IMG/VR virus record: IMGVR_UViG_3300035698_012504
Span: 186,694 to 250,693 of that record
DNA from: a virus
Strand: one strand, 5' to 3'
DNA: 64,000 bases
The notes beneath the pieces were generated by a model. The model did not search any database and had not been told where the DNA came from. It saw nothing but the letters and a program-made list of their open reading frames with translations. Numbering within the stretch: position 1 is the first letter of the stretch; every line of letters begins with the position of its first letter. Below, piece by piece: positions 3,001 to 43,722 of the stretch. The position numbers and the translations under genes are program-made.

Positions 3001-3602
3001 GTGTGGTTATAGATCATGGAGGCGGATTAAAAACTAGATACCTTCATATGTCTAGTATAAATGTCGGACCAGGCCAGCAGATATCTACCGGGCAAGTTAT
3101 AGGAATGGCAGGCGGTCGTGGACCAAGTGGACCAAATTCATACCCATCTCACTTACACTATGAGATATCAAAAGACGGAGTTAAATATGATCCAGAAAAT
3201 TTCTTAAGTAAATCTGGATTTGCAATGACTGGTCTTACAAACAGAGACCCAGGACAGTTCCTAACATTCCCAGAAAATGCAGCAGTAGGTGGAATAGAAG
3301 ATCCTCCAAGTGCTAGTATAAACCAATCAATACCTACTAGAGATAGATCAGCCCTAGTAGATAATAGTGTGAGCTATGATTTAGCAAGAGATCAAGGAAC
3401 CGGAAATGCAGTTGAGAAAGGCATGGCTGGTGTAGGAGAAACAATGAAGAAAAGTCAAGAGCAAGGATTAATAGTAATAAATAATATGGTATCATCTATT
3501 AATTCTATGGCTAGTAGTTTAGCGGGTGGTGGTGGAAATAGTGATAAGTTTGATGAAGGTGCAGATCCTGATCTACATGCAATATTAACAGGTAACTTAT
3601 AG
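1..3602 (+). CDS. Tape-measure-like virion protein with C-terminal M23 (lysostaphin-type) metallopeptidase domain; 5'-partial, reading frame open to the window edge
   Basis: No stop codon between position 3 and the ATG at 72 in frame 3. Gly-rich hydrophobic segments and a Lys/Glu-rich coiled coil are present. M23 motifs read HKAVDIRA...DHGGG...SHLHYE. Confidence 0.75.
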   Translation, partial: IAAGFRGIAGHIGAAVGEALKFPMKAINLGLEAVRATIHATSKAIGSALNTGFKALGYAVQAVGETIKVGWRGFKAVITAPFKFISNFLKKPWEAMKKGVTKLKDKLLGNEVIGVDSMGEPIKARWPGAIIRHLVGIKRNTSAMAAHFSGKEEGSDEAQEQSRYRGIWDRIKKKREKKDEKGGGGGMGGGVFGGMLGGIGPKLLAGLIPMIIAGAITGDVKTAMFAGGGGMIGGILGGIIGMAGGPVGSVAGFAVGTALGGLLGGFVVKPLSEVLGEHPIMGGVSLGVGAAVGAVLGGFLGSAVPVLGTIWGVGIGAALGGAITGFAIPKLADAFGPEVPAMAGTGAVLGGILGGMLAAPTLAGIPFGIAAGAAIGGAVGTVVGISGGFFGNMAEKLGLPREIGSGAGMGAAAGAILGGIVGTAMGGPIGLPIGLGLGAALGLAVGAIAGGAVWTIKKMIGVFGGDDKDMAKGGFASGAMNSTSAMATGALVGTILGFMMGGPAGAGIGAAAGAAAGPMIMLAMSAAKTAKELKAASESEKRLTQNQKAVRSMGGVMAGKEKGKLERLDSKAAEAIESEESQGKRKEEAGRLYRQELRNTKTEMDSSNSSVFTGWRESSVYQQRKSKLAELKTDEGKEKRLKQLEREIKEKERKRALEGMGQGIDYGSMSPEEKIKNISELLEAAKKEGNPDKVRQLEMRLKNTKLLKEREDNKMGAAPPKFHSGGIVEGQPGKDVPAILKAGEAVLTEKQQAAIGDFSHPDNKDWMKSKSLSKSMDLSEDDMMKKVIATTPLGWAINNWEKVDEGLTKAVFDWVNRPSDTDTMADKISNAVSSSISNVAGSAQRGQQAGAKAGRSVGGAIGGGFGKKAGGAIGGALGKVAGGATGLLDEATGGAIGMTPGSDYFDEQKRSISDSFMQDNAPAGGDAEVNNKTASIGAASISNGIAFPSDHKYITSPWGPRSVRGGSSYHKAVDIRAKTGDPIYASMGGVVVDAGGKYGGVVIDHGGGLKTRYLHMSSINVGPGQQISTGQVIGMAGGRGPSGPNSYPSHLHYEISKDGVKYDPENFLSKSGFAMTGLTNRDPGQFLTFPENAAVGGIEDPPSASINQSIPTRDRSALVDNSVSYDLARDQGTGNAVEKGMAGVGETMKKSQEQGLIVINNMVSSINSMASSLAGGGGNSDKFDEGADPDLHAILTGNL

Positions 3603-3613
3603 GAGATAACAGA

Positions 3614-22000: not shown

Positions 22001-22134
22001 GGAGGAGTAGCTCAGTTGGTAGAGCGCATGCCCGTAAAAATGCCCTATTCGATATTTTCCCCTTCAAGGGTTATGAGGAACAGGGTTACTTCGCAAAAAG
22101 CAAGAGGTCGCCAGTTCGAGTCTGGTCTCCTCCA
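22001..22134 (+). tRNA. tRNA gene with a ~60-nt insertion in the anticodon-loop region (candidate intron). Anticodon tentatively GTA (Tyr) if the insertion sits at the canonical 37/38 position.
   Basis: Perfect acceptor stem ggaggag/ctcctcc. Canonical D arm tagctcagttggtagagc and T arm gccagttcgagtctggt. Between them lie 75 nt instead of 17+5, namely catgc-ccgtaaa-[60 nt]-a-gcaag. Confidence 0.5.
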
Positions 22135-27548: not shown

Positions 27549-28430
27549 GTGATAACTAGCGATGCGTTTTTGGCAATTGGTGCCACTCACGCAATGTGTG
27601 AAGATTACATCAGAACTGGAATCATTGGACAACACATAGGAGAAGATGTACCATTTGCCATAGTTTCAGATGGATGTTCAGGTTCTCCAAATACAGACAT
27701 AGGGTCAAGACTCTTAACAATTGCTGCAGAGAAAACAATTAAAACTATTCATTCACTTAATTCTGCTCTTTCATTTGGAACCGATTATCGTAGCTTAGGA
27801 TTTATAATCTCTAACGAAGCCAATCAGCTGAATGCTGGTAATACTGTAACTCCAAAACAATGTCTTGACGCAACATTAATAATGATGGCTGGTATGAAAA
27901 CTGTATATGTTTACGGAGACGGATATATTATTCTACAATTCACAAGTGGAAGAATTATAATTATTGAACTAAGTTGCTATAAAGGTGCACCTCCGTATCT
28001 TTCTTATCAAACTCAGCCCGAGAGATTGGACATGTATAATAGTAAAGTCCCGAAGGCAGCCATTAAAGTGAAAGCCTGGGAACTAAATGGGGGACCAGTA
28101 ATAGAATTTAATGGATGGGAATTTGGGTACCAGGGTGGTAAGTTTCAATTCAATGTATCCGAGCTTATCCATGTTGATATTGGTTCCTTCGAAGAAATAA
28201 CAACCACATTAATTTCATCTGATGGACTAGGTTCGTTTATTCATGTTCCAACTGGAGAGCAAGTACCAGTTGATGATATAGTTGCAAAACTATTTGATAG
28301 GATGCCTAATCATGGGAAGTTCATTCAGAGAAGAGCTAAGCGGGTTCTCAAGGAACTTGCAAAGGATCAAATAGTCCACAACGACGATGTCTCTATCGCC
28401 GGTATGACATGGAGGGAGGATCAGGTATGA
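27549..28430 (+). CDS. PP2C-like (PPM) Ser/Thr phosphatase (putative)
   Basis: GTG start after AGGAGG. GATHAMCEDY (motif 1-like), FAIVSDGCSGS (motif 2, DGHGG-like) and LISSDGLGSF (C-terminal DG motif). AT-rich gene. Confidence 0.5.
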   Translation: MITSDAFLAIGATHAMCEDYIRTGIIGQHIGEDVPFAIVSDGCSGSPNTDIGSRLLTIAAEKTIKTIHSLNSALSFGTDYRSLGFIISNEANQLNAGNTVTPKQCLDATLIMMAGMKTVYVYGDGYIILQFTSGRIIIIELSCYKGAPPYLSYQTQPERLDMYNSKVPKAAIKVKAWELNGGPVIEFNGWEFGYQGGKFQFNVSELIHVDIGSFEEITTTLISSDGLGSFIHVPTGEQVPVDDIVAKLFDRMPNHGKFIQRRAKRVLKELAKDQIVHNDDVSIAGMTWREDQV

Positions 28431-28560
28431 TGTTTAAAATCTTTCTATGCGTAATAGCATTTCTTGTAGTATCTTATTTCGTTACATATCCAGAAGAGAT
28501 TCCAAGAGACTTCAAAGATTTGTTTGAGAAGTTCAAAGGGAAAGATAAGGATGATAAATA

Positions 28561-30312
28561 ATGGCTGCGATATCTGTTATAAATGAGGCGACAGGTAAAA
28601 CAGTTAAGTTGAAAGATAAACAATTCTTGGCTTCTGGAGGAGAAGGAAAAGTATTTCTAGTCAATGGAGTAATATATAAAGTATGCCATGATATATCTAA
28701 TATGATACCTAAAGAAAAAATACAGGAACTATGGGCGCTGTCGTCTCATGGAAATATTGCTTGTCCAGAAGATATTCTTGTAACATCCAATAAGGCAAGA
28801 ACACCAATAGGATATACTTCCAAATTCATACCAAACTCTATCCCTATTGCTAAGCTTGTCTCGAATGGGTTCAGAACCAAACAAGGATTTGGTGCAGAAC
28901 AAACTGTAGAATTAGTAGAGAGTTTAGTTAAGATGGTTAAGTTTGTTCATTCTCATCCAGGAATTTTGATAGTAGATCTTAATGAATTTAATTTCCTAGT
29001 CAATGAATTGAAGTTAACAGACCCATTTGCAATTGATGTTAATTCATGGCAGACACAGAACTTTCCTGCTTCTGCTATAATGCTACATATAATAGATCAT
29101 AAGACCAGTAAGTTTTCAAAGTTAACAGATTGGTTTTCATTAGGAGTTGTATCTACTATGTTGTTCTTAGGAGATGGTCCATACGGAGGAAGACATCCGA
29201 ACTTCGCTGCAAGAGATATCAAAGCAAGACAAGCAGCAACCGCTTCCATATTTGGACCAGGCGTAACCCTTAATAAGAATATAAGATCATTCGATGTTAT
29301 TCCAGATCAGTATAGAAGCTGGCTGGAGTCAATGTTTCAAAAAGGAATGAGACTTCCTCCTCCTGATGTGTTGGGACTGATGAGTCTGGAGAGCATCGTA
29401 GTGAAATTACTTACTGGTAGTGACTTATTTGAAATAGTAAAATTGTCAGAATATACTTCTGATGTTATTGAATGGCGCTCCGTTAATAATACAGTGATAT
29501 GTATTACAAAGAACTCATTGATTGTAGGGAATGAAAGCAAAAAAATTAGACGGAATGATTTAGATGTAGTAGTAACTGATGAATCACGTACACCAATTGC
29601 TATCGCTATTAAGAAAGATTCAACTACCTCAGGATTACCATCAGGATACGGTCTACTTTCTCTGGTGAATTTCTTAACAAATGATCCTATAGGTGGAGCA
29701 TCCTTGGCTGCGAAAGGATTCTTTGTTGCTGGTAATAGAATATATGTTCTCTCAGTAGATAAAGTAATTGAATTAGGTATTCGTGAAATGGGAAGTAAGA
29801 TAGTTGCTGCTGTTAATAAAGAGTGGGCATTTCAAAGCTTGTCAAGTACAGTATATTCTGGATTAATATATTCTGACATATTCGGCAAACCATACCTTAC
29901 AATCCCATATGCTGTAGGAAAATGTCTGAAGCGACACTTCCCAGAACTTGACGGGATCAAAATTACAGACGCCAAATATGAATCAGGTGTCGCATTTGTA
30001 ATAGGTGCAGACCAGGATGGTAAATATAACAAATATATATTTGTGTTCGATGAGAAACACAGCACACACACTACAATAGAAGAAAAGGATATTACTCCAA
30101 GCGATATAAATTTCACTGTTCTTGATAATGGAACGGTTGCATATATAGATTCAAATGACGCACTGGTACTCTTCAAGAAAGATGCACCAGATAAACGAAA
30201 AGAAATAAGAGACCCAGCCGTACATGGCGGGATGACTCTAACGAAAAGAGGGACTCAGGCAATGGCATTTGTAGGCAAGACGGTCTATACCATTTCCATG
30301 AAGACCCCATAG
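28561..30312 (+). CDS. Protein kinase-like (Ser/Thr kinase fold) protein
   Basis: Gly-loop SGGEGKVF, VIYKV lysine, HSHPGILIVDLNEFNFLV catalytic-loop-like segment. It has a long C-terminal extension. Confidence 0.5.
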   Translation: MAAISVINEATGKTVKLKDKQFLASGGEGKVFLVNGVIYKVCHDISNMIPKEKIQELWALSSHGNIACPEDILVTSNKARTPIGYTSKFIPNSIPIAKLVSNGFRTKQGFGAEQTVELVESLVKMVKFVHSHPGILIVDLNEFNFLVNELKLTDPFAIDVNSWQTQNFPASAIMLHIIDHKTSKFSKLTDWFSLGVVSTMLFLGDGPYGGRHPNFAARDIKARQAATASIFGPGVTLNKNIRSFDVIPDQYRSWLESMFQKGMRLPPPDVLGLMSLESIVVKLLTGSDLFEIVKLSEYTSDVIEWRSVNNTVICITKNSLIVGNESKKIRRNDLDVVVTDESRTPIAIAIKKDSTTSGLPSGYGLLSLVNFLTNDPIGGASLAAKGFFVAGNRIYVLSVDKVIELGIREMGSKIVAAVNKEWAFQSLSSTVYSGLIYSDIFGKPYLTIPYAVGKCLKRHFPELDGIKITDAKYESGVAFVIGADQDGKYNKYIFVFDEKHSTHTTIEEKDITPSDINFTVLDNGTVAYIDSNDALVLFKKDAPDKRKEIRDPAVHGGMTLTKRGTQAMAFVGKTVYTISMKTP

Positions 30313-31119: not shown

Positions 31120-31692
31120 ATATATTAAATAGTGACTAACAGGTTTCATCTTTGTGGGGGTGACCTGGTTTCGACGTGGGTGAATGGAAGGATGAGTTGC
31201 GTACCGAGGACTCCGATGGCCTCGTAAAAAATCGGAAAACGCTTAATTGCGAAAAACGTAGTAGACTTCGCTAGCCGTGTGGCTTCCAAGATCGCAGATG
31301 TTGTGGCTCCGGCCCCCGCGTTCGCACTTGCTGCCTAATCGGATGAACTAGCTGTCTCGTTCTAGACGCCCTCTATGGGATGAGACAACGACAGAGGGAC
31401 TGGACTCGGTAAGATGTAATCACTTGTAACCGAGAAGAGTACTTACTAGTGGTATAGGCGAAAGGAACCGTGCCTGACGGGTTCTGAGCTGAAACTAAAT
31501 GAAAGGCTATGTACGTAGACGCTTGTGCGGATACACTGACGGACGCGGGTTCGATCAATCTGGTCGACTTGGGAAGTAATTCCCTCGATTAAAGAGTGCT
31601 CATACGGTGAAAGCTAAGTCGTGCAATACGATAAGCCAATACCGTGGGGTTGAGGAAGAAATTCCAAAAGCCCTGTAGAGACTTATAGACAC

Positions 31693-32136
31693 CTAACTCT
31701 CACTGAGACATGGTGTACTAGGATGGAAAAATTCTTCCTGAAATTGTTCCTTTGCTATAGTGGCGGCGTTGTTGTACTTCCCATTCCGTGGGGTTACTTC
31801 AATATACCGATCTATCAGAAGATCGGTACGTCGGATCTTATCCGGTTCTCGGAGATAAGGTCGAAGTTGTTCTAGGAATTGTATGGCCTTCCTACCTTGT
31901 ATTGCCCAAACAAACGACGGTTTGTGGTGATCTTTGTAGGTTTTCTTATGGGATATGCACCCACCATAATTGGCTTTCATGAACTCTAGTAGTTCATACG
32001 TTGTGCTTGCAATAGAAACAATGGGTCTTCTCCATAGATCTGATCGTTTCTGTTTGGTCACCGTTACACTTCCTTCGCCATCAAACAACCCAGCAGCATA
32101 GGAATCATTCAGTTGTGAATCTTTCATAATACGCAC
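31693..32136 (-). CDS. LAGLIDADG homing endonuclease (single-motif, I-CreI-like)
   Basis: YAAGLFDGEGSV motif. 147 aa, typical of homodimeric LAGLIDADG enzymes. A promoter-like TTTGTCC motif lies 20 nt upstream inside the intron. Confidence 0.8.
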   Translation of the reverse strand: MRIMKDSQLNDSYAAGLFDGEGSVTVTKQKRSDLWRRPIVSIASTTYELLEFMKANYGGCISHKKTYKDHHKPSFVWAIQGRKAIQFLEQLRPYLREPDKIRRTDLLIDRYIEVTPRNGKYNNAATIAKEQFQEEFFHPSTPCLSES

Positions 32137-32151
32137 TCCTCTTGAAGTTTA

Positions 32152-32165
32152 TAGTTTGTCCTCAT
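32152..32165 (-). promoter_or_regulatory. Promoter-like motif (GGACAAA core) inside the tmRNA intron, upstream of the LAGLIDADG ORF
   Basis: tagtttgtcctcat. Confidence 0.4.
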
Positions 32166-32245
32166 TAGGATAGGGCTTCGAGATGAAGGTATAGTCCAGG
32201 CCTTTGCGAAAGCATTGGATCCACCTGTCCCGCCACCTCCACCAT

Positions 32246-32323
32246 CGGGTAGTAGCGCAGTCCGGTTAGCGCACTTGCTTTGGGAGCAAGGGGTCGTGAG
32301 TTCGAATCTCACCTACCCGACCA
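32246..32323 (+). tRNA. tRNA-Pro (anticodon TGG)
   Basis: cgggtag/ctacccg acceptor, tagcgcagtccggttagcgca D arm, cttgc-tttggga-gcaag, gtgagttcgaatctcac T arm, discriminator A, CCA. It starts 2 nt after the tmRNA CCA. Confidence 0.8.
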
Positions 32324-32495
32324 AATATTTCATGTACAATAAGCGTGCCCGGCGAAGGAGATGAGAACATCCGGGATTGGCCGTCAACGCGGTGACTTAA
32401 AACTCCTATTGTACATTTGCATCCGTTTCAGGGAGATCTTGTTCTCCAGCTCGAGGTTGTGGGCTTCCCCCAATCTCGGGTTTCAGTTTCTATGA

Positions 32496-32572
32496 CGCAG
32501 GGTAGGGCAGTTGGTCAGCCCGCTTGACTCATAATCAAGAGGTCGTGAGTTCGAATCTCACTCCTGCTACCA
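32496..32572 (+). tRNA. tRNA with CAT anticodon (Met or Ile2). The 1:72 pair is a C:U mismatch, so it may be initiator-like.
   Basis: cgcaggg/tcctgct acceptor, tagggcagttggtcagccc, cttga-ctcataa-tcaag, gtgagttcgaatctcac, CCA. Confidence 0.7.
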
Positions 32573-33042
32573 ATATTCAGATGGTAACTGGGTTGCGTGT
32601 ACCTCGGATACTCCTATACCCTTCGGGGCTGGAAACAAACATGGCACTTTAAAATGTATCCGCGCCTCTGATGTTCATGTATGTGCTTCTACAATGTGGG
32701 ACCGATCACCCCGTTTAAAGCACACCCATGGGTGACTCTTTCCGTAGTGTCCACCAATGAATTGCTCCCTCCAAAGGAGAACGAATGGGAAATGGGCATG
32801 CCCATGTAGAGTGTTGTAGCACTCATATCAAGTTTAAATCGGAAAGAATTGTCGTATCCTGTTGTTGGGAGCCGTGGGCATATCGACGCCGCGCAGTACC
32901 AACAACGAAAGCGAATGGGAGTGGGCCCACATACTCGCAAGGTGTGTGGAGAAACTGTTAGTCCTGGGGGAGCACGGTACCCCGGCGGACGCAATCTGCA
33001 GAGGCCGTTCGAATCGGCAGCTAACTTTACCCATTGCTTCTA

Positions 33043-33119
33043 GGGCTCTTAGCTCAGTTGGTCAGAGCACCGGCCTCATAAGCCGTTGGTCCTCGGTTCA
33101 AGTCCGAGAGGGCCCACCA
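33043..33119 (+). tRNA. tRNA with CAT anticodon (elongator Met or Ile2)
   Basis: gggctct/agggccc acceptor, tagctcagttggtcagagc, ccggc-ctcataa-gccgt, ctcggttcaagtccgag, CCA. Confidence 0.75.
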
Positions 33120-33220
33120 ATTTTCAAAAATCCTAGGTAGCATTCCGCTGCCTAGGTTGGATCGGGAACACATCTCGATTTTTTAGTTTCAGACTTAACG
33201 CAAAGAAAGGGCAGATTAAT

Positions 33221-34018
33221 ATGCCAAGCAATGAAAATAGAAATCAGCTGCATGCGCTTCTTGCAGCCGATAACGATAAATCCAAACTACTTATCGGATT
33301 TCTCAGAGAAGCACAAAAGACGTTCCAGGAGCGGCGAGGCCACTTCGACGGACTCACCACCTCGGTCGAGTTCTACGATGATGAGCGAGCGCTCCAAGAG
33401 AACAAAACCGAAGTGAAGCGGATGGAAGAGACCGTCTACGGAAAGCTTCGGTATGTGTTCGCACATGCTGCACAGGCATTCAATCTCGGTACATCCAAAG
33501 AACGCACCAACACCATAGCCACAGCTGACTTGATCGTCAATGGGGTCACGGTGGCGAAAGACGTGCCAGCGGCGGAGCTTCTGTATCTAGAGAAGAGGAT
33601 GAGTACCATTCGCGAACTGCTTCATCAAGTTCCAACACTTGCTCCGGGTAAGGTTTGGACTGAGTTGACAACTGTAGCGGAAGAAGGGGTATACTCTTCC
33701 CCAGAGGAGCTGACCACAAGAACGGAAAAGGAAACAGTCTCACTCGAACTTTCACCGGCTACGGAAAAGCATGCCGCACAAGTCCAACCCCAGGTGAAGG
33801 ACGTTCGTGTAGCGAAGATACTGAAGTCCCACCAGTCGAGTGCGGTTACGCCCCTCACCAAATCAGGGATTCTGGCGCGTTGTGATGACATCATCTCGGC
33901 AACCCGTGCCGCACGAATGGCTGCGAACACTGCAACAGTGAATCAGCAGACATACTCCGAGAAACTTCTTGCGTACATTCTGGATGGAGACGAAGCTCTG
34001 TCAGAATCCTCCGAATAG
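33221..34018 (+). CDS. Hypothetical protein on a GC-rich island
   Basis: 265-aa ORF preceded by AAAGAAAGGG. Confidence 0.45.
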   Translation: MPSNENRNQLHALLAADNDKSKLLIGFLREAQKTFQERRGHFDGLTTSVEFYDDERALQENKTEVKRMEETVYGKLRYVFAHAAQAFNLGTSKERTNTIATADLIVNGVTVAKDVPAAELLYLEKRMSTIRELLHQVPTLAPGKVWTELTTVAEEGVYSSPEELTTRTEKETVSLELSPATEKHAAQVQPQVKDVRVAKILKSHQSSAVTPLTKSGILARCDDIISATRAARMAANTATVNQQTYSEKLLAYILDGDEALSESSE

Positions 34019-34209
34019 GCATTGAGCCTCCCCTGTGGAGGCTGGGTCTAGTGTAAGTCTTATGATTCAGATTCAACGATTGGGAAATTGGAGAGGTTAC
34101 GAATCTCTTCTAAAAACCCATGGTCAGAGTCAGATTATTGAGACCCACAGATTCAGCTCGCAGGTTCAACATAGAACCCTCTCTTTATATCCTGGTGAAA
34201 TCAATCAAC

Positions 34210-34287
34210 GAGCAGACGCGAGTTCGATTCTCGTCCAGGCCCCCATAAATATCATCGGCCTGGTCGTCTAGACGGTAGGACATGCTC
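34210..34287 (+). tRNA. Candidate circularly permuted or rearranged tRNA: 3' half (anticodon stem 3' strand to CCA, 34210..34245), 11-nt linker, 5' half (acceptor to anticodon stem 5' strand, 34257..34287)
   Basis: 3' half: gagca-gac-gcgagttcgattctcgt-ccaggcc-c-cca. 5' half: ggcctgg-tc-gtct-agacggta-ggac-a-tgctc. The acceptor strands (7/7) and anticodon stem strands (5/5) are perfectly complementary across the two halves. Confidence 0.4.
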
Positions 34288-34374
34288 GCTAAGACTGAAG
34301 GTTTTGCAGAGGAAGAATGAGAGAGATCAACACGGGCCCATCAACATGTAAGACATGAAATCTTATAATAAAAG

Positions 34375-34803
34375 ATGGCAATCAGCCCGGAGTCGACGGG
34401 AATTCGGCTCCGGGCTTCTTTACTCAACAAACGATATGCTCAACGAGGAGGAACCGGTATGTATAGTATGCTGACGATACTACTCGATTTTGCGATGGTT
34501 TTCATCAATGCATTTTTCCTGCAGTCCACTTGGAATCTTACACTCCCTCATTTGTTTGACACTCCGTATACTGGTCCGATCATTTTCATACAAGCTCTAG
34601 GAATAGTTTGTTTCTATTCGATATTTAAATCATGTGATGCAACTATAATGGAACCATCTGAATTTAAGGATGTAGTAAGGATATTTAATGAATCTGATGA
34701 GGATACACTGGGACGGAGCTTAGGTTCCAAGGGAATCCTCTTACTTGGGAAATCAATATTTGTTATATTTGTATTTGTAATTGCCCACCTACTTTGGATA
34801 TAG
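34375..34803 (+). CDS. Membrane protein
   Basis: 142-aa ORF with TM helices. Confidence 0.4.
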   Translation: MAISPESTGIRLRASLLNKRYAQRGGTGMYSMLTILLDFAMVFINAFFLQSTWNLTLPHLFDTPYTGPIIFIQALGIVCFYSIFKSCDATIMEPSEFKDVVRIFNESDEDTLGRSLGSKGILLLGKSIFVIFVFVIAHLLWI

Positions 34804-35174
34804 TTCTTAAATAGTTATCTTTCTAAATTGGAAAGAGGCTATTTGATATGATTGATATGAACCATAACCTTTTTTATTTTAGGAGAAAACGTGGTTATTG
34901 ATATAGGAAAAGATAAAACATTATATAAACAAATGTAGGTGTACCCGTACACGTAAAGGAAAGTTAACTATAAAGGATTAATATATGTTTATTGAAGTTG
35001 GGCCGGGTAAATTTGTGAATGAAAATCGAGTAGAATATATTAAGTTTAAACCCAAACATGTTTTTATATTAACAACTCAGGATGAGTATAAAGTTCCTGA
35101 ATTGGTTTTAGTGGCACTGGAAGAACTTACAATGAGAAGTTAATTATTCCCTCAACAAACAAAAGGAGGTATCC

Positions 35175-35435
35175 GTGGTTAAGTTTACCACACAAACAGC
35201 GACTGGGCCTTTGATTGGGCTCGGCGTATCCGAAGGAAATGTGGAACGATTGAAAAAGGGTGAGCCCATATTAGTTGAATTAAATGAGATTGGACAAGGC
35301 GGCGGGCAAATACTATTGATGTATGGTGAAACGGAGAAAGCCATAGTGGCAGAATTAGAGTCAAATGGATTGATGACAACTGAAACAGTTGTACAACATC
35401 CTGATGCAAACTTCCCAACAGATAGTAAACACTAA
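35175..35435 (+). CDS. Hypothetical protein
   Basis: 86-aa ORF with RBS AAAGGAGG and a GTG start. Confidence 0.35.
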   Translation: MVKFTTQTATGPLIGLGVSEGNVERLKKGEPILVELNEIGQGGGQILLMYGETEKAIVAELESNGLMTTETVVQHPDANFPTDSKH

Positions 35436-35743
35436 TGTTCGCATACATAGGTGGGATGGTTTTATATTTCATAATAGGATTTGTATCTGCAATATTAGTT
35501 GGTAAGATTATAGTAGTATTTAAAATATGGGATATACATAATGATTATTGTGGAGACATGGGGGATGAGTTCTCTGGTTCAGGATTCTTTTCATTCATGA
35601 TGGGCGGGTTCTTAATAGCTTGGCCACTGTTCGGAGCAGTTTCATTAATCGTAGTTTTTGCTACTGGTGTAATATATACAATAGAACATTCTGTTGCATT
35701 GATTAAGAAACTAGTAGATCCAATTGGATTATTAAGGGTGTAG
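35435..35743 (+). CDS. Small 2-TM membrane protein, paralog 1
   Basis: Shares the AWPLFGAVSLIVVFATG-type motif with the next two ORFs. Start and stop overlap the neighbouring genes. Confidence 0.4.
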   Translation: MFAYIGGMVLYFIIGFVSAILVGKIIVVFKIWDIHNDYCGDMGDEFSGSGFFSFMMGGFLIAWPLFGAVSLIVVFATGVIYTIEHSVALIKKLVDPIGLLRV

Positions 35744-35774
35744 TGGGTGGTCACAAACATGTGAAGGAGAAATA

Positions 35775-36113
35775 TTGATGGTTACATTTCTTGCGTTAGT
35801 CGGTATATTGTTTTGTTGGATCGTGATTGGAATAGCTTCCACATATTTACTAGCATTTCTCGTACGAAATAAAGACATTCCGAAACATTCATATGTTATG
35901 TCTAATCCAGATGAAGGAGACTATGAATTTTTATGGTGGTTAGCATTAACAGTTCCACCAGGATTTTATATACTGCTTGTAGTTGGCCTGATTGTAAAAG
36001 TAGTTGAACCAATAATAAGTGGTATCAGTTTTAAGAACATAATAATCAAACAGCGTGAATCAGTTCGAAAGAAAACGGATGCTCCTGTGAAAATTGAAGG
36101 CGATTCACGATGA
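35775..36113 (+). CDS. Small 2-TM membrane protein, paralog 2
   Basis: ILFCWIVIGIASTYLLAF...VPPGFYILLVVG. Similar to 36110..36394. Confidence 0.4.
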   Translation: MMVTFLALVGILFCWIVIGIASTYLLAFLVRNKDIPKHSYVMSNPDEGDYEFLWWLALTVPPGFYILLVVGLIVKVVEPIISGISFKNIIIKQRESVRKKTDAPVKIEGDSR

Positions 36114-36394
36114 TTATCTTAGCTTTGATCGGAGGCATAGTCCTCTGGCTAGGAGTAGGAATTGCAACTACATTTCTAATAACATATATATCACGGACTT
36201 GGATAGAGGAATCAAAGACAGATCCAAAAATAACTGCAAAGGCTATGCAAGAAAATATATTAGCACTTAAAGTAATAGCAATAATAGTCCCACCACTATT
36301 CTATCTTCTACTCATTGTGGGGGGAGGTTGGGAAATAGTCCATAATCTTTTTAAGTACCAAGATAAATTGTTCCAAGAAGAAGAGAAAGATTAG
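36110..36394 (+). CDS. Small 2-TM membrane protein, paralog 3
   Basis: IVLWLGVGIATTFLITY...VPPLFYLLLIVG. It overlaps the previous stop (ATGA). Confidence 0.4.
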   Translation: MIILALIGGIVLWLGVGIATTFLITYISRTWIEESKTDPKITAKAMQENILALKVIAIIVPPLFYLLLIVGGGWEIVHNLFKYQDKLFQEEEKD

Positions 36395-37298
36395 AAGGGA
36401 TTTAAATGGACGAGGATACTGCATTAGAAATATGTAACTTCTGTGGCAAAGAAGAATATTGTACTCATACTACTGACCCATATATGTATGAAGTATTTGG
36501 AGATACTAGAGTGGATTGGTGGTGTGGTAATTGTTTATATGAACGATCAAAAAAAATAGGGTTAGCATAATATGGATGATTGTGAAGAAAGAATAGCTAA
36601 GTTATTAGATGCATTAGAAAGAATAACTACCTTCGGACATACAGAGGGTTGTAATTGTCAATGCGCCCCAGTATATGAATGTGGCTGCTATGAGGAAGAT
36701 CAAGCAGACATAGCAAGAAAAGCATTAGAGGAGTATGGATACGAATGAGTGATTTAAATTCTTTAAAAGAAAAAGCTGAATTAATTATTGCAAGAATGAC
36801 AAGCAATATAGGATTACTAGAAATGCAAATGGATGAATTAAAAGAAGTTATGATATTAATCCAAAAGAGAGATGTCGATGAAGACATTCATATCACCAAC
36901 GGAAATGTTTAAGGAGGAATAATGTCGGATGATAATAAGTATTCTGCGTACACGGCCTTCGCAGCAATGGGAGAATATATAGCATATGCAATAGTTATCT
37001 CTGTGCTTATTGGCTCCTGTGCATTTATAAATGTGAATCGTGACAATCAGAGACACGAATTAAAGAAATTAGAAATACAGATGGAACAGCAGGAGAAACC
37101 TCAGTAAGGGAGGATATATGTTAGCGACCTGGCCTTTCTCTGTTATCGAAACCCTTATTGGGGATATCCTCATAAGATTCATCAAGAAAATAAGAGACAC
37201 TTACTTCGAAATATATAAAGCAATCTATGTAGCCATCCTGGAAAATATTTTGACACCAGAAGAGTTGGAACAAAAGATGAAAATGTAATTCGATTTCT

Positions 37299-37383
37299 AG
37301 GAGGAGTAGCGTAATTGGTAACGCAGCGGTCTTGAAAACCGCCGCCTTCGGGCTTGGGGGTTCGAGTCCCTCCTCCTCCGCCA
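37299..37383 (+). tRNA. tRNA-Ser (anticodon TGA), type II
   Basis: ggaggag/ctcctcc acceptor, tagcgtaattggtaacgc D arm, gcggt-cttgaaa-accgc, 14-nt variable arm, gggggttcgagtccctc T arm, discriminator G, CCA. Confidence 0.8.
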
Positions 37384-37405
37384 TATTTATAGAAAGGATA
37401 TTGTC

Positions 37406-37951
37406 ATGGATGTCGGAGTGTTCCTAGGAAGAATGTGCCCTATTCATTTAGGACACCAACATGTTATAGAAAAAATGAGATTAGACTATGGCCGAGATTA
37501 TCTTATAATACTAGGAAGTTCAAATGAAATTATTACTCATAGAAACATATTTTCTTACAGGCAGAGGACATCGTACATTAGAATGGTGTATGGGGAAACT
37601 GCCCGTCTAATAGGATTGGGGGATCATGGTGGAAGAAACTTTCTTGATGACTTGGCTGAGTGGCTTGCCGAACTAAAAGATACAATTAAATTAGCTTTTT
37701 ATGGGCAAGATGTTCATCCAATATTTTATAGTGGAAGTGAATTTGATATTAGTTTCTTTGTTAATAATGATATGAGATTTAAGATAGTAAATAGAACTGG
37801 GCCTGGCTCTTATGATGTAGCCGGAGAAGATATAAGAAAACATCTGTTGCGTGAGGAACATGATCAATTAGGAGGACTCCTTGATCCGAGAATTATTCCT
37901 CATGTATTAACTGATTTCGAACAAAACCTAAAAATCCTTTTGTCTATGTAA
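37406..37951 (+). CDS. nadM: Nicotinamide/nicotinate mononucleotide adenylyltransferase (NadM/NadR-type nucleotidyltransferase)
   Basis: The N-terminal GRMCPIHLGH matches the GxFxPxHxGH signature. A later GEDIRKHL segment is SxTxIR-like. 181 aa, the size of archaeal/bacterial NMNATs. Confidence 0.6.
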   Translation: MDVGVFLGRMCPIHLGHQHVIEKMRLDYGRDYLIILGSSNEIITHRNIFSYRQRTSYIRMVYGETARLIGLGDHGGRNFLDDLAEWLAELKDTIKLAFYGQDVHPIFYSGSEFDISFFVNNDMRFKIVNRTGPGSYDVAGEDIRKHLLREEHDQLGGLLDPRIIPHVLTDFEQNLKILLSM

Positions 37952-37984
37952 ACGCAAAACCCAAAGTAGGGAAGGACATTATAT

Positions 37985-39454
37985 ATGCCTACGGCTAGTC
38001 AAATGAATTCCGTGATGGCCAAAAACGAGCAACTAGAAAGTGTGCTCGAAGAAGCCAAAGAAACAATAATAGCTCTTGAGGCGAGGCTTGTGGAGATAAC
38101 GACTCCTCCTCTTTCAGTGAGTACAGTTCAGAGTGTCGATTTGGAGAGTGGGGTCTGTTCATTAGCAACAGGTGAATCAATAATAGACGTATTGATTCCA
38201 GCCCATATGAAAGACACTATCGTAATTGGTGACGTAGTACAAGTAGAATCCATGTCGAAGCAAATCATCGGCCCTTCCGGCTGCGCGACAATCGGAGAAA
38301 TTGCATTAATTAAAAGAGTGATTGATAACAACACAGTAGAAGTTGATGTTGGTGGTACAGTGAAAGTAGTAACATATAATAAATTATTCAAACATGAAAA
38401 AGGCGACAGAGTTCAATTAGATCTGACAAGAAATATCATAGTGCGAAACCTTGGAAAAGACGATGAGCAGTTCAAGTTCTCAGGCGAGACGGCAGTCACC
38501 TGGGATGATATCGGTGGGCTCGAAGATGCGAAACTCTCTATGAGAGAAGCTCTCGAGTTGCCATATCAATACAGGGAAATTTTCGCACACTACTCCAAGT
38601 CGCCTGCAAAAGGAATCCTATTATGGGGTCCTCCTGGTTGCGGCAAAACACTTCTTGCAAAAGCAGCTGTATCATCCATTGCTGCCACGCATGGAGCGGA
38701 GACAACGAATACGGCATTGATATATGTTAAGGGTCCTGAGATCCTCAGTAAGTGGGTAGGTGAATCAGAAGCAGTCATTCGCGGACTCTTCCAACGCGCC
38801 AGAGAGCACCACAAAGAACACGGATATCCTGCCGTTCTGTTCATAGATGAGGCCGAGTCCATTATGAATAGAAGAGGATCAGGTATCAGTTCGGACATGG
38901 ATAGAACAATCGTTCCCATGTTCTTGTCTGAGATGGACGGTCTCGATGAATCCCATGCAATAGTAATAATGGCAACTAATAGACCCGACATGCTCGACCC
39001 AGCCGTCACAAGAGATGGTCGTGTCGATAGAAAGATTGAGATTCCAAGACCAAGATTAACCGAAGCAAGCAGTATCTTCGGAATCCATCTTCGGAACAAA
39101 CCACTTGCCAAGAAAACTAAAAGTGAAACATTGGTAGAACTGGCATGCGAAATGCTTTTCGATGACGAATTGAAGTTGAAGAAAATTGTGATGAAAGATG
39201 GCGGATCAAGATTCCTTCGCATGAAGCATGTCTTGAATGGAGCTATGATCGCCACCCTTGTCGAGAAGGCAACTGGTATCGCGATCAGACGCGACATCGA
39301 ATCAGGGAAACCTTCGGGGATCACTGAGGGGGATATTAAAGAAGCCATTGAAGATGCGATTGTTGAAAATAAAGGATTGGGTCTTAAGACCGAAGTTAAA
39401 GAATTAATGGGTGGAAAAGTGAGTGGTGTGGCCAGCGTAGAGAGAGTGATATAA
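37985..39454 (+). CDS. AAA+ ATPase of the classic clade with N-terminal coiled coil and OB-like domain (proteasomal-ATPase/ARC/PAN-like architecture)
   Basis: Walker A GPPGCGKTLLAK, Walker B LFIDEAES, second region of homology ATNRPDMLDPAVTRDGRVDRKIEI. The N-terminus has a coiled coil (EQLESVLEEAKETIIALEARL) followed by a beta-rich segment. Confidence 0.8.
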   Translation: MPTASQMNSVMAKNEQLESVLEEAKETIIALEARLVEITTPPLSVSTVQSVDLESGVCSLATGESIIDVLIPAHMKDTIVIGDVVQVESMSKQIIGPSGCATIGEIALIKRVIDNNTVEVDVGGTVKVVTYNKLFKHEKGDRVQLDLTRNIIVRNLGKDDEQFKFSGETAVTWDDIGGLEDAKLSMREALELPYQYREIFAHYSKSPAKGILLWGPPGCGKTLLAKAAVSSIAATHGAETTNTALIYVKGPEILSKWVGESEAVIRGLFQRAREHHKEHGYPAVLFIDEAESIMNRRGSGISSDMDRTIVPMFLSEMDGLDESHAIVIMATNRPDMLDPAVTRDGRVDRKIEIPRPRLTEASSIFGIHLRNKPLAKKTKSETLVELACEMLFDDELKLKKIVMKDGGSRFLRMKHVLNGAMIATLVEKATGIAIRRDIESGKPSGITEGDIKEAIEDAIVENKGLGLKTEVKELMGGKVSGVASVERVI

Positions 39455-39457
39455 GTT

Positions 39458-39712
39458 ATGGCTCGGGCGCAAGCTACCAAGAAACGTACCAAACAATCGT
39501 CTGGGGTAAGTTCTGCTCCACTTAAGACATCTACTCATACTGGACAATTCAAAACAACAAAGGCTGGAATACCTGGCGGCGATGTGCTTGGTGCTATAGA
39601 TGAAGCTTTGTCAGGTTCTTCGGATTTGAAAGAGGAGCTGGCCAGGGAGTGGGAGGCGAAGAGGTCCAGCTGCTGTGGTAGCAATTGTTGTGACAGTGAT
39701 GATGGTTATTGA
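39458..39712 (+). CDS. Small Lys/Ser-rich protein with C-terminal Cys cluster
   Basis: 84-aa ORF. Confidence 0.3.
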   Translation: MARAQATKKRTKQSSGVSSAPLKTSTHTGQFKTTKAGIPGGDVLGAIDEALSGSSDLKEELAREWEAKRSSCCGSNCCDSDDGY

Positions 39713-40169
39713 AAACTTAGTAGCTGCTATTTGGGTGTGCCTAGCAGTCGGTTCAATTTCTCTGACTATTACTAAGTCTGTCATATTCTCTCCGATAAGA
39801 GATTTCGTTGAGAAGAGATTTGGACGGGATAGTAAAATAGATGAATTGTTCAACTGTTCATATTGTATGTCACATTGGGTGGCATTATTTCTAGTAGGAA
39901 TATCAGGACTAAGAGTTACGTACTCTAACTTTATTGCAGATTTTATTATCTCCTGGTTCGCTGTCGTATCCATATCGACAGTAATAATTTGGATAGTATA
40001 TAGATCATTTCATTATTTACAAATACCTAATGTCGATAAGTTAAGAAGTTTACTAGAATTATCGAAAGAACGGTTGATGGAGCTGGAGGAGAAGACTACC
40101 AATCTCGAGCAAGAGAATGCAGAGTTGCAGGAATTGCTCGTTAAAAATATTGAGTCCTCACAGGATTGA
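39675..40169 (+). CDS. Membrane protein with C-terminal coiled coil
   Basis: 164-aa ORF: TM helices, then LMELEEKTTNLEQENAELQELL. Confidence 0.4.
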   Translation: MVAIVVTVMMVIENLVAAIWVCLAVGSISLTITKSVIFSPIRDFVEKRFGRDSKIDELFNCSYCMSHWVALFLVGISGLRVTYSNFIADFIISWFAVVSISTVIIWIVYRSFHYLQIPNVDKLRSLLELSKERLMELEEKTTNLEQENAELQELLVKNIESSQD

Positions 40170-40196
40170 TATTCATACATGCGTAAGACAAGAGGA

Positions 40197-40238
40197 GAGA
40201 GGCCCTAAACAGATATTGATTGGGCCTCTCATTTTTTG
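40197..40238 (+). terminator. Rho-independent terminator
   Basis: gagaggccc-(16 nt)-gggcctctc followed by attttttg. Confidence 0.7.
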
Positions 40239-40250
40239 AAAGGAAAGGAT

Positions 40251-41789
40251 ATGAAAGCACCACCTGGTATGGAGGATGGTATGTCTTCCAAGGTTGTTGA
40301 CGCGACGAGTGGAGAAAGTTCCAATCCATGGGTTGATAGACGCGGACTGGCATTACTTACAGACTTCTACGAATTAACAATGGGTGCAGGGTTTTTTAAG
40401 ACTGGCAAAGCAGAAGATGAATCATGCTTTGAATATTTCTTCAGAGGTCTTCCTGAGCACAATGGAGTTGGTGTCTTCTGTGGAATCCAATCTGTTCTCA
40501 AGTATCTCACGCACTTCAGATTCACTGAGGATGACATATATACTTTAGAACGTACTAAAATGTTTACAGGCGAATATCTAAATTACTTGAAAAATATGGA
40601 GCTGAAACTCACGGTCAGGGCTGCTAAAGAGGGAACACTTGTTTTCCCTGGCGAGCCCCTAGTCCAAGTTTCAGGTCCATTAATTCAGTGTCAATTAATT
40701 GAGAGTGCCCTCCTTAATTTTCTTAATTTTCAAACTTTAATAGCGACAAAAGCTGCCAGAATGGTAAGAGCAGCTAACCATGAAATGGTACTTGACATGG
40801 GATTGAGAAGAGCACAAGGCCCCGATGGTGCTCTATCTTCATCGCGCGCACAATACATTGGTGGTTGTTCATCAACATCAAATACTCTTGCACATAAATA
40901 CTTCGGAATTCCAGTCAAAGGAACAATGGCTCACTCATGGGTAATGATCTTCGATACTGAGATTGAATCGTTCCGAGCATATGCTGATACCTTTCCAGAA
41001 AGTTGTGCGCTGTTAGTAGATACATACGACACTATTAGATCAGGTGTACCAAATGCAATAACAGTATTTAAAGAACTGGCAAAACACAATCCGATGATTA
41101 GACCAGCAATACGATTAGACTCCGGTGACCTTGCAAAGCTAAGTAAACAAGCACACCAGATGTTTGTAGATGCAGGGTTCAAAGATCCTCTCATTGTCGC
41201 ATCGAATGACCTTGACGAACATTTGATTGCAGATCTTAAGAGACAAGGTGCCAAAATTAATGCTTGGGGAGTTGGAACAAAACTCACTACAGCATATGAT
41301 CAACCAGCTCTTGGCGGAGTCTACAAATTGGTAGCAGTGAAGGAGGGAGAAACTTGGGCTCCTAAAATAAAAGTTTCATCAAATATAGACAAAATAACAA
41401 ACCCTGGGCGTCACGATGTCGTTCGATTTTTGGATGAAACTGATTCACCAATTGGGGATGTGATATACGAACAAGGGGAAGCGAAGAATGTCGCCGGAGT
41501 TGGAACTGTTGTTGTAACTGACGCAACCAATCTCTGGAAGGAAGTAAAAATAAGAGGAGCCCATAAAAGGGTGAATCTATTAGATGATGTTTTTGTAAAT
41601 GGATCGACTGTCAACGTAGATACTAGAACTATTGCACAAATAAGAACCGATGTAATACTTCATCTAGATAGATTGGATGATGAATTCAAGAGACTTCTAA
41701 ATCCTGAATATTATAAGGTAGCTCTTTCAACTGGATTAGGTGAAACAAAGAAACGGCTCTTGCAAGAGGCACAAGATATGGAGGGATAA
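40251..41789 (+). CDS. pncB: Nicotinate phosphoribosyltransferase (NAPRT/PncB family)
   Basis: LALLTDFYELTMGAGFFKTGK...ESCFEYFFRGLP resembles the NAPRT N-terminus (ALLTDLYQ.TMA.GYW...FELFFR). GTMAHS motif present. RBS AAAGGAAAGGAT before the ATG at 40251. Confidence 0.8.
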   Translation: MKAPPGMEDGMSSKVVDATSGESSNPWVDRRGLALLTDFYELTMGAGFFKTGKAEDESCFEYFFRGLPEHNGVGVFCGIQSVLKYLTHFRFTEDDIYTLERTKMFTGEYLNYLKNMELKLTVRAAKEGTLVFPGEPLVQVSGPLIQCQLIESALLNFLNFQTLIATKAARMVRAANHEMVLDMGLRRAQGPDGALSSSRAQYIGGCSSTSNTLAHKYFGIPVKGTMAHSWVMIFDTEIESFRAYADTFPESCALLVDTYDTIRSGVPNAITVFKELAKHNPMIRPAIRLDSGDLAKLSKQAHQMFVDAGFKDPLIVASNDLDEHLIADLKRQGAKINAWGVGTKLTTAYDQPALGGVYKLVAVKEGETWAPKIKVSSNIDKITNPGRHDVVRFLDETDSPIGDVIYEQGEAKNVAGVGTVVVTDATNLWKEVKIRGAHKRVNLLDDVFVNGSTVNVDTRTIAQIRTDVILHLDRLDDEFKRLLNPEYYKVALSTGLGETKKRLLQEAQDMEG

Positions 41790-41790
41790 T

Positions 41791-43722
41791 ATGCAATTAT
41801 GTAAAATTGGCACAACATGTATCTCAACATTAGTGGGTGATTTCGAAGGGAATGTGAATAGAATAATTAGTGCAATTAAACTTGCCGAGAGACAAGGTGT
41901 ACAGATTCTAGTAACTCCAGAGTTGGGAGTAACCGGATATAGTCTGGGGGACCGAGTTCTTTGGGATGATATTGAATTGAAGTGCGAAGAAGCTATGCGA
42001 AAAATAAAAGAGCATTGTTCTAAAGTTACTGTGTTTGTTGGTCTTCCGATATTCGCAGATGGAAAAATATATAATGGAATGGTTTGTATTTGTGGTAGAA
42101 AGTATTGTGGGGGATTTCTAAAAGCCCACCTACCAAGTTATAATATATTTTATGAAACAAGAAATTGGTCTCCGTATGATGGAGAAGATAGCATACATCA
42201 TGATTTATATGGATACTTAGGTCATAATATTATAGAAATTGGTGGGGTTAAAATATTTGGGGAAATATGTGAAGATGTTTGGGCGAATTCCCAGACTGTT
42301 TCTCAAGCAGTTAGTGGAGAAAATGGAGCCGTACTCGTTGTCAATGGTAGTGCTTCTCCATTCTCACCACAAAAGAATGTATCTAGAATGAAATTGATTC
42401 AGACAACTGCACAAAAAAATATATGCGTATATGCATATGCAAATCAATTAGGATTAGACGAAGGCAGGACTGTATTCGATGGTGGTGGAATCATCGCATC
42501 TCCGGATGGTATATTGTCTGCTGGGAAAATACTTAGTGATGCTGCGTTTACTATTAACACTGCCGTAGTAGATTTTGATAAGATAAGAAGACAAAGAAGA
42601 GAAAACAATACATGGAAATCTATAAAATCGAAACATATGTCGCGGATCCATAGCGAATATACCAAACCTATTTTAACAAATTATCAACTGATAAAAGAAA
42701 TGCTAGAATGCGATAGATACAAAGAAGCACATTACTCTTCTGCAATAGATGAACGCCAAATATTTAAGGCATTATCTCTTGCGTTAAGAGATTATTTTAT
42801 TAAGGCTGGTTGTTTTAATCATATCCTAATTGGTCTATCTGGAGGTAGAGATAGCGCATTATGTCTATTGGCTGCCCATACTGCAGTTCATAGCATGGGT
42901 AAACTCCCATCCGAAATAATAAAGACAGTGTATTTAGATCATAGTAGAAATAGTAGTGACAGAACAAAACAAGCAGCAATTGCTTTAGCTGGGGCACTAT
43001 GTATTCCGATTGAAGTAGTTAATATTGACGAAGCATCTGATATATCAAACACATTCGCGCATGATATGTTAAAGAAAAGTTCTAATCTTGATAATCCTCC
43101 GTTGGATCGAATCACTATGCAAAATACACAGGCAAGAGTTCGTGGGGCATTCATGCTCAACTGGGCAAATGCAATAGGTGGATTAGTAATAGTAACTGCG
43201 AATATGAGTGAAACTGCTGTGGGATATTGTACGACCGGTGGAGACAATCAAGGCGGGTATTCACTCCTAACAAATGTTCCGAAGACTATGGTTAATTCCA
43301 TTCTAGTTGACAGAACCATTGTATACAAACCAATGGGGAATCCTATTTCAAAAGCCATTCGAGAAATATTGAATATGAAACCAAGTGCAGAACTGGAACC
43401 AGATCAAACAGATGAAGATGATCTAATGCCATATCAAGTATTGGATAATTTACTAGTATTATATATAAAAGAAAGAAGACCAATAATAGAATGTTTAGAA
43501 ATTCTGAAGGTGATGTACGAAGTTGATTTTTATATATTTGGAAAGCTGACTAAATATTGTAAACGATTTATTCAGATGTTAGTTAAAAATCAATGGAAGA
43601 GAGACCAGCATCCAGTGGGTCCAAGAGTAATGGACTTCGATCTCGATCCAAAAACTGGATTCAGATTCCCAGTACTCCAAGTACTAGAGGAAGATCTTGA
43701 GTCACTAGAAGGGAAGTTATGA
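41791..43722 (+). CDS. nadE: Glutamine-dependent NAD+ synthetase (N-terminal nitrilase/CN-hydrolase domain + C-terminal NAD synthetase PP-loop domain)
   Basis: CN-hydrolase triad context VTPELGVTGY ... ICEDVW. PP-loop LIGLSGGRDSALC. ATG at 41791 after GGAGGGA. Confidence 0.8.
   Translation: MQLCKIGTTCISTLVGDFEGNVNRIISAIKLAERQGVQILVTPELGVTGYSLGDRVLWDDIELKCEEAMRKIKEHCSKVTVFVGLPIFADGKIYNGMVCICGRKYCGGFLKAHLPSYNIFYETRNWSPYDGEDSIHHDLYGYLGHNIIEIGGVKIFGEICEDVWANSQTVSQAVSGENGAVLVVNGSASPFSPQKNVSRMKLIQTTAQKNICVYAYANQLGLDEGRTVFDGGGIIASPDGILSAGKILSDAAFTINTAVVDFDKIRRQRRENNTWKSIKSKHMSRIHSEYTKPILTNYQLIKEMLECDRYKEAHYSSAIDERQIFKALSLALRDYFIKAGCFNHILIGLSGGRDSALCLLAAHTAVHSMGKLPSEIIKTVYLDHSRNSSDRTKQAAIALAGALCIPIEVVNIDEASDISNTFAHDMLKKSSNLDNPPLDRITMQNTQARVRGAFMLNWANAIGGLVIVTANMSETAVGYCTTGGDNQGGYSLLTNVPKTMVNSILVDRTIVYKPMGNPISKAIREILNMKPSAELEPDQTDEDDLMPYQVLDNLLVLYIKERRPIIECLEILKVMYEVDFYIFGKLTKYCKRFIQMLVKNQWKRDQHPVGPRVMDFDLDPKTGFRFPVLQVLEEDLESLEGKL

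Follow-up and report, generated by a model that had tools for sequence, protein, structure and literature searches.

A YrlA-like tRNA-mimic RNA encoded beside DUF7873 genes of phages and bacteria

The window, as we call the whole stretch of DNA analyzed here, comprises 64,000 nucleotides of a virus (IMG/VR record IMGVR_UViG_3300035698_012504, positions 186,694 to 250,693). Shortly downstream of a gene of the DUF7873 family, it carries the parts of a tRNA in permuted order, with the 3′ half upstream of the 5′ half. An earlier description made from the letters only (the sequence-only reading) took this for a circularly permuted tRNA gene of the kind described in a red alga, and gave decayed tandem tRNA copies as the alternative. 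What does such a locus encode? Our results showed that the element encodes a conserved non-coding RNA that mimics tRNA, has the architecture of the YrlA class, and is not a decoding tRNA gene. The DUF7873-linked family to which it belongs is large, and we found no published description of it.

The permuted tRNA-like core and its covariation

The core occupies positions 34209-34288 (+) in the order T arm, 7-bp acceptor with C73-CCA, linker, acceptor 5′ strand, D arm, and 6-bp stem; the layout described by the sequence-only reading, including its 11-nt linker, was found where that reading had placed it. The 3′ strand of an "anticodon-like" stem (CGAGCA) and a 3-nt variable region (GAC, with C34217 as position 48) lie at 34209-34217, followed by the T arm, GCGAG-UUCGAUU-CUCGU (34218-34234), which was recovered in the Rfam scan as well. 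The acceptor 3′ strand CCAGGCC, a discriminator C, and an encoded CCA (34243-34245) form 34235-34245. The linker, UAAAUAUCAUC (34246-34256), closes the acceptor stem in the primary transcript. Next come the acceptor 5′ strand GGCCUGG with U8 and C9 (34257-34265), the D arm GUCU-AGACGGUA-GGAC (in the DNA GTCT-AGACGGTA-GGAC, 34266-34281) with A26 (34266-34282 together), and the 5′ strand of the anticodon-like stem, UGCUCG (34283-34288). All are on the plus strand, and apart from the acceptor 3′ strand and the linker, which were read from the sequence, the parts were also assigned by the covariance model R2 (see below). The claim of perfect stems needed a small correction: the acceptor halves are complementary at 7/7 positions (CCAGGCC 34235-34241 with GGCCTGG 34257-34263), as had been said, while the "anticodon" stem has 6 bp, not 5 (CGAGCA/TGCTCG, 34209-34214 with 34283-34288). 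The tRNA tertiary positions are complete (U8, A14, G15:C48, G18G19, T54, C56, A58), and the Levitt pair 15:48 corresponds to G34271:C34217.

R2 was built from 72 IMG/VR match sequences of other contigs. The window was left out of it, and the window DUF7873 gene fails the DNA retrieval pattern that supplied the R2 sequences. Across the whole 64-kb window, R2 scored 34208-34289 at 58.0 bits (E = 3.6e-15), and the runner-up, at 29.7 bits, bridged two tRNAs, from the 3′ part of one to the 5′ part of its successor. The match of the element is far above what chance would give. On R1, a covariance model of the RNA core, ordinary tandem-tRNA junctions peaked at ~33 bits. ARAGORN reported 10 ordinary tRNAs in the window, with no tRNA and no tmRNA at the element. 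A permissive Rfam scan gave a sole family that matched end to end, YrlA (RF02553; model positions 1-114, E = 0.077). This family was also matched by two syntenic IMG/VR relatives, L001 (23.1 bits) and L002 (30 bits), and by cultured phages (29-38 bits). No Rfam family was found at threshold on the DUF7873-linked RNAs of 16 bacterial loci.

The locus had no match among 50,697 phage records by megablast or blastn, and an exact DNA pattern found no near-identical copies (0) in IMG/VR. No cultured phage is a close relative; the tail sheath of this one shares no more than 30% identity with those of PBS1/AR9-like jumbo phages. A looser pattern (T loop, CCA, D arm) retrieved 120 loci, mostly ordinary tandem tRNAs, from which a filter for acceptor complementarity yielded five new members.

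Pairing was conserved throughout the family. The alignment of 21 sequences had 95.7% of its cells paired, compared with 60.6% in shuffles and 41-49% in slid controls, and the alignment of 141 distinct sequences had 94.1% paired, compared with 58.5% and 36-49%, respectively. Double substitutions occurred at 21/21 core base pairs. Covariation extended to the tertiary Levitt pair: among 72 viral members, 15:48 was G:C in 37, A:U in 34, and another combination in 1, and among 100 bacterial members it was A:U in 99 and another combination in 1. Since this pair is absent from the model, its covariation is free of fitting bias. The structure is under selection. The same argument from 15:48 covariation has been used for the tRNA fold of YrlA (PMC4201824).

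An N73-CCA followed the 7-bp stem in 61 of the best 95 phage-contig members (64%), against ~1.6% expected by chance, and in these 95 a median of 15 nt separated position 73 from the acceptor 5′ strand. The bacterial chromosomal copies mostly had a closed 7-nt acceptor loop, and CCA was present in just 23% of the best 90.

Linkage to DUF7873 genes

The RNA core starts (34209) 190 nt 3′ of the DUF7873 gene and on the same strand (33221-34018, +; PF25283, 265 aa, Pfam E = 1.1e-52). The relatives L001 and L002, whose DUF7873 proteins are 29-32% identical, had the same permuted element ~200 nt downstream, with compensatory changes in every stem. The comparison with related loci that the sequence-only reading had suggested therefore showed the permuted arrangement kept, and not two degenerate tRNA remnants.

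With a DNA pattern built on two motifs of DUF7873, we obtained 120 loci from IMG/VR, 96 of them with enough downstream sequence. An R1 match of at least 40.6 bits, on the same strand and no more than 1.5 kb downstream, was present in 82 of the 96 (85%); when weaker R1 matches were counted, the number rose to 89 (93%). Cultured phages of Rhizobium, Klebsiella, Ralstonia, Gordonia, Arthrobacter, and Pseudanabaena also encode DUF7873, annotated as "hypothetical" and often amid tRNA genes. R1 matched at 44-59 bits in the unannotated gap after DUF7873 in 8/11 cultured-phage loci, and two Vibrio phages gave weaker R1 matches at the same place. This gap is ~400-500 nt long in cultured phages and exceeds 1 kb in Pseudanabaena phage Pam2. 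The annotated "tRNA-Sup-TTA" of Klebsiella phage vB_KpM_FBKp24 (L126 3512-3591; MW394391.1 46041-46120) overlaps the T arm and CCA of a tRNA-like module (3553-3649) and is probably a mis-call; the first module of that phage (3355-3429) carries a tRNA-Leu-type D arm.

The same DNA pattern retrieved 120 loci from bacterial genomes, and 120/120 had a true DUF7873 gene. They came from Streptomyces, Nocardia, Kitasatospora, Nonomuraea, cyanobacteria, Sorangium, Planctomycetota, and Chloroflexi. R2 matches were present in at least 91 of the 100 bacterial loci searched, 59 of which had two matches, and in the loci compared they were situated just 3′ of the DUF7873 gene. The chromosomal module (L264-L383), which many Actinomycetota, cyanobacteria, myxobacteria, Planctomycetota, and Chloroflexi carry, usually has two tandem RNAs, the stronger of which typically has a 7-nt closed acceptor loop; its neighbour genes vary. 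Neighbourhood clustering, done for bacteria on 60 loci, gave DUF7873 as the only conserved neighbour of the RNA.

An exhaustive HMMER search found 2172 cluster representatives of DUF7873 at 50% identity. A word-indexed protein search had yielded just 2 homologues, and single-protein queries 2-4 loci each. The AF2 model of the protein has long helices and beta-hairpins (predicted local distance difference test, pLDDT, 89.5; 38 from a 2-sequence alignment). Searches of the PDB and BFVD with this model gave no informative fold relatives, and there was no family match in PHROGs, NCBIfam, or PADLOC. Homology of DUF7873 to Ro60 or DUF2828 had an hhalign probability of 0.2%.

No TROVE/DUF2828 gene was found in the window, either among the scanned open reading frames or by tblastn across the whole 64 kb. 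Rhizobium phage RHph_TM16, which has the module and one tRNA only, lacked TROVE/DUF2828 in 100,000 of its 101,119 bp. A Ro-like gene occurred inside the locus in 0/120 bacterial and 1/118 viral loci. Ro60 tblastn matched 357 phages, none of them from Klebsiella, Rhizobium, Ralstonia, Arthrobacter, or Pseudanabaena. This RNA family has no linked Ro60-like gene and is Ro60-independent in that respect.

Three loci of the R1 training set lacked DUF7873, and in two of these (L032 and L066) the RNA lies directly 3′ of Ro-like DUF2828+DUF7788+vWA genes. On these IMG/VR contigs (L032 4644-6879; L066 9818-11800), the Ro-like gene is followed by two tandem tRNA-like modules, most with NCCA. By tblastn, this type of Ro-like protein was found in 711 phage records, often annotated as "Ro-like RNA binding protein". 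Y-RNA-like partners may be common in phages with Ro-like DUF2828-type genes.

Flanking structure and surrounding region

The flanks of the core are predicted to pair with each other. The 5′ strand of this closing stem (34180-34202, +) consists of UCUCUU, UCCU, and GUGAAAUC, and includes GGUGAAAUC; the 3′ strand (34300-34324, +) consists of GGUUUUGC, AGGA, and GAGAGA. The minimum free energy (MFE) fold pairs them as GUGAAAUC/GGUUUUGC, UCCU/AGGA, and UCUCUU/GAGAGA. The flank duplex had an energy of −22.1 kcal/mol (z = −2.7), and across the family the closing helix had a median z of −2.2 (n = 72 members). Close DNA-level relatives of the window locus, in which covariation of the closing stem could be followed, do not exist. 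Two internal loops separate this stem from the core. The 5′ loop is AAUCAA (6 nt, 34203-34208, +), and the 3′ loop is CUAAGACUGAA (11 nt, 34289-34299, +), which was delimited by flank comparison and falls on AaAcU when aligned with the Rfam YrlA model. A similar UAARACUGA-like motif was present in several relatives. As modelled, the molecule is a closed rod, one end of which carries a tRNA-like L.

Unusually strong structure was predicted for the whole intergenic stretch 34019-34430 (fold z = −4.9). Directly 3′ of the DUF7873 stop codon there is a hairpin, AGCCUCC-CCUGU-GGAGGCU (34025-34043, +), with analogous hairpins in L001 and L002. Between it and the RNA, the fold of 34019-34430 gives a structured spacer (34044-34179, +). 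The spacer includes a T-arm-like hairpin, GAGAG-GUUACGAAU-CUCUU (~34092-34110), and bears repeated CAGAUUC/UCAGA motifs; L001 and L002 repeat AAGCUGA at the same position. R2 with filters off found no second tRNA-like module in this spacer. A sequence scan revealed an intrinsic-terminator-like hairpin of 13 bp followed by UCUUU (34384-34416, +), with equivalent GC hairpins in L001 and L002; the transcription unit probably ends there.

A full-length standard tmRNA gene (31164-31557, +; RF00023, 102.4 bits), on which ARAGORN was silent, lies ~1.7 kb upstream of DUF7873. Gordonia phage Phendrix also has a tmRNA near its DUF7873 module (L133 434-962). At 22001-22134 (+), a 134-nt match to Rfam tRNA (48.2 bits) has GGAGGAG/CTCCTCC as its acceptor strands, and its D and T arms are normal. 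This tRNA, missed by ARAGORN, has a ~60-nt insertion in or near the anticodon arm and may be intron-containing or otherwise interrupted. The tRNA-Cys reported by ARAGORN at 32957-33026 (+) had no Rfam tRNA match at the gathering threshold, nor in a permissive scan of 31500-38000. Accessory genes in the regions 27549-30312, 31693-32136 (−), and 37406-43722 encode a PP2C-like phosphatase, a protein-kinase-like product, an HNH endonuclease (its gene lies within the tRNA cluster), a cytidylyltransferase-like protein, an AAA ATPase, and, as a pair for NAD salvage/synthesis, NAPRTase and NAD synthase.

Interpretation and comparison with known systems

We consider it likely that the element is a YrlA-type, Y-RNA-like tRNA mimic of ~145 nt (34180-34324) that is independent of Ro60, works with DUF7873, and has no decoding role. 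This reading is based on conservation, covariation, synteny, tertiary covariation, and the lack of nearby Ro-like genes; from these we infer the folding, the processing, and the protein binding. By analogy with Ro60 and Y RNA, the strict synteny suggests that DUF7873 binds the RNA.

Several results weigh against this reading. The covariation alignments were fitted to the model, and their paired percentages are inflated. The predicted fold of DUF7873 gives no hint of RNA binding, and the proposed binding to this RNA is drawn from synteny. The Ro-contact motif GNCGAAN0-1G is absent from the window, where GGUGAAAUC (GGUGAA) is a near-match to the YrlA motif GNCGAA in which U replaces C; G.CGA[AC] occurred in the 5′ flanks of 6/72 relatives and in 4/72 control flanks. 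A Ro-like gene may be present elsewhere in the phage, as the contig measures at least 152 kb and the window covers 64 kb of it. Because the bacterial copies mostly have closed loops and only 23% have CCA, a step that involves RNase P and the CCA end cannot be family-wide. The YrlA score of the element, 24.5 bits, falls well short of the 69-bit gathering cut-off. The accepted YrlA beside the Ro gene of mycobacteriophage Bxz1, however, scores just 32.5 bits, also under the cut-off, so that the threshold is a poor discriminator here.

The element could instead be a canonical YrlA Y RNA that uses Ro60/Rsr from the host or from elsewhere in the phage, with DUF7873 as a mere neighbour, and we regard this as unlikely. 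The shared architecture and the best Rfam match agree with it, as do the limited part of the contig in the window and the same-architecture RNAs directly 3′ of Ro-like DUF2828+vWA genes in L032 and L066, which score 73-77 bits on R1 (the R1 training set included both). Some hosts of DUF7873 phages may encode Rsr, and a survey of Ro60-encoding genomes listed a YrlA candidate in Rhizobium etli (Chen et al., PMC4201824). Against it stand the missing TROVE/DUF2828 genes in the window and in the searched part of RHph_TM16, the near absence of Ro-like genes from the bacterial and viral loci, and the lack of Ro60 tblastn matches in phages of the five host genera named above; the proposed Ro-binding motif is not conserved, and DUF7873 is the sole conserved neighbour. 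It is still less probable that the element is a cis-acting tRNA-like part of the 3′ untranslated region of the DUF7873 mRNA, processed or stabilized by RNase P or tRNA enzymes (3′-end formation of the mascRNA type), with no trans-acting RNA. Its position, always downstream and co-oriented, would fit such an element, a predicted RNase P site is present, and a search of the interval from stop codon to RNA gave no sigma-70-like promoter. Against a cis element stand the extended closing stem and the internal loops that lie beyond the tRNA-like domain and have motifs common to some members, as does the frequency of two tandem modules. The mostly closed acceptor loops of bacterial copies are poor RNase P substrates, and a hairpin stands between gene and RNA.

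What the sequence-only reading had proposed, a true permuted tRNA gene whose transcript is circularized or ligated and re-cut to a decoding tRNA, retains its topology but not its function, and we consider it very improbable. The 3′ half does precede the 5′ half, with perfect stems and an encoded CCA, and by coincidence the stem is followed in the window by CUAAGAC, 7 nt that would suit an anticodon loop of the format Y-U-NNN-R-N. There is, though, no closable anticodon loop: the stem is followed by internal loops of 6 and 11 nt, after which the flanks pair into the closing stem, and in relatives, whose flanks were read by eye, no consistent 7-nt Y-U-NNN-R-N loop occurs there. Neither junction has a bulge-helix-bulge motif (3-nt/4-bp/3-nt), the variable region is just 3 nt, and the acceptor stems of bacterial members are closed by 7-nt loops. 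To our knowledge, bacteria do not possess a tRNA splicing endonuclease pathway, which also counts against such a gene. Our literature search found no report of a phage permuted tRNA gene and nothing relevant on DUF7873-linked RNAs. The remaining explanation, that two neighbouring tRNA genes have decayed to remnants or that the element is a two-piece (permuted) tmRNA, is hardly credible. It would suit a region rich in tRNA genes, permuted ssrA genes have the same gene topology, and Rfam beta_tmRNA gave weak matches of 13 bits. The decayed tandem copies of the sequence-only reading are ruled out by covariation and synteny in ~200 independent loci, and ordinary tandem tRNA junctions do not exceed the R1 score given above. 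For beta_tmRNA, the gathering score is 84, and the window already has its standard tmRNA (31164-31557). A tmRNA is rejected by the full D arm, the lack of pseudoknots, and the ~12 nt between stem and closing helix, which leave no room for a tag frame.

For the favoured reading, a Ro60-independent tRNA mimic working with DUF7873, the following mechanism can be proposed. The RNA would fold like a tRNA and be handled by host tRNA enzymes. RNase P would cut at 34256/34257, 5′ of G34257, and exonucleases would trim the 3′ end back to CCA34245, by analogy with the YrlA of M. smegmatis; we propose these steps because C73-CCA and a short linker come directly after a full 7-bp stem. Removal of the linker 34246-34256 would leave a tRNA mimic in two pieces, joined by the acceptor and closing stems, whose CCA end is free. 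The co-encoded DUF7873 protein would bind the closing-stem/loop part, and the resulting ribonucleoprotein may act on, or compete with, the tRNA-binding machinery during infection. Phage copies more generally are probably opened by RNase P in this analogy, which would give a CCA end.

A wider proposal, which we hold only tentatively and on the doubtful side, is that DUF7873 and the RNA form an unrecognized Ro60-independent ribonucleoprotein class in phages, Actinomycetota, cyanobacteria, and other bacteria, the phage RNA being opened by RNase P. If this is true, the phage CCA end could be aminoacylated, or enzymes or toxins directed at the 3′ ends of tRNAs during infection could meet it as a decoy or a substrate. 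Bacterial Y RNAs have so far been known only as Ro60 partners. Here the Y-RNA architecture is tied to a different protein family in ~85-90% of the sampled loci, phage and chromosomal. A large family of unknown function gains a likely RNA partner, and tRNA-mimic RNAs of the "rod plus L-shape" type are broader than the Ro60 system. Klebsiella phage FBKp24, the Gordonia and Arthrobacter phages, the Rhizobium phages, and Streptomyces offer tractable systems. For annotation, tRNA finders miss such elements or mis-call them as odd tRNAs.

YrlA (RF02553) is a Y RNA of bacteria and mycobacteriophage with a T arm, a closed acceptor-like stem, a D arm, and no anticodon loop (Chen et al., 2014, PMC4201824), and its describers likened it to a circularly permuted tRNA (Wang et al., 2018, bioRxiv 10.1101/312249). 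The window element has the same order of T arm, acceptor-like stem, and D arm, the tertiary nucleotides including 15:48 covariation, and no anticodon loop; its 5′ and 3′ ends pair into a stem, and its gene lies beside a same-strand protein gene. It differs in that the neighbour is DUF7873, without hhalign homology, and not the Ro60/TROVE gene expected for YrlA within ~4 kb on the same strand. GNCGAA is not conserved, the score is under the Rfam threshold, and the phage copies encode a full 7-bp stem and NCCA. The YrlA of Mycobacterium smegmatis is the one YrlA with a 7-bp stem, and in vivo RNase P cleaves it and a CCA is added (PMC4201824). That RNA, a nicked tRNA mimic, shares the 7-bp acceptor-like stem with the window element, but its CCA is post-transcriptional and it is bound by Rsr, whereas here the CCA is encoded and the processing is predicted.

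The two-piece tmRNA of alpha- and beta-proteobacteria and cyanobacteria, encoded by permuted ssrA, also presents a T arm, an acceptor 3′ strand with CCA, an excised spacer, and an acceptor 5′ strand, in two pieces held together by helices. Unlike the window element, it has no D stem, and its tag frame, pseudoknots, and SmpB have no counterpart here. The permuted tRNA genes of the red alga Cyanidioschyzon merolae give complete decoding tRNAs through a circular intermediate of the eukaryotic/archaeal splicing machinery. They share with the window element the 3′ half upstream of the 5′ half and a short linker that joins the acceptor strands; the anticodon loop and bulge-helix-bulge motif are absent from the window element. 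The RNAs beside Ro-like genes in L032 and L066 share its architecture, NCCA, and tandem modules, with a Ro-like partner instead of DUF7873, and the architecture is therefore common to the Ro-linked and the DUF7873-linked systems.

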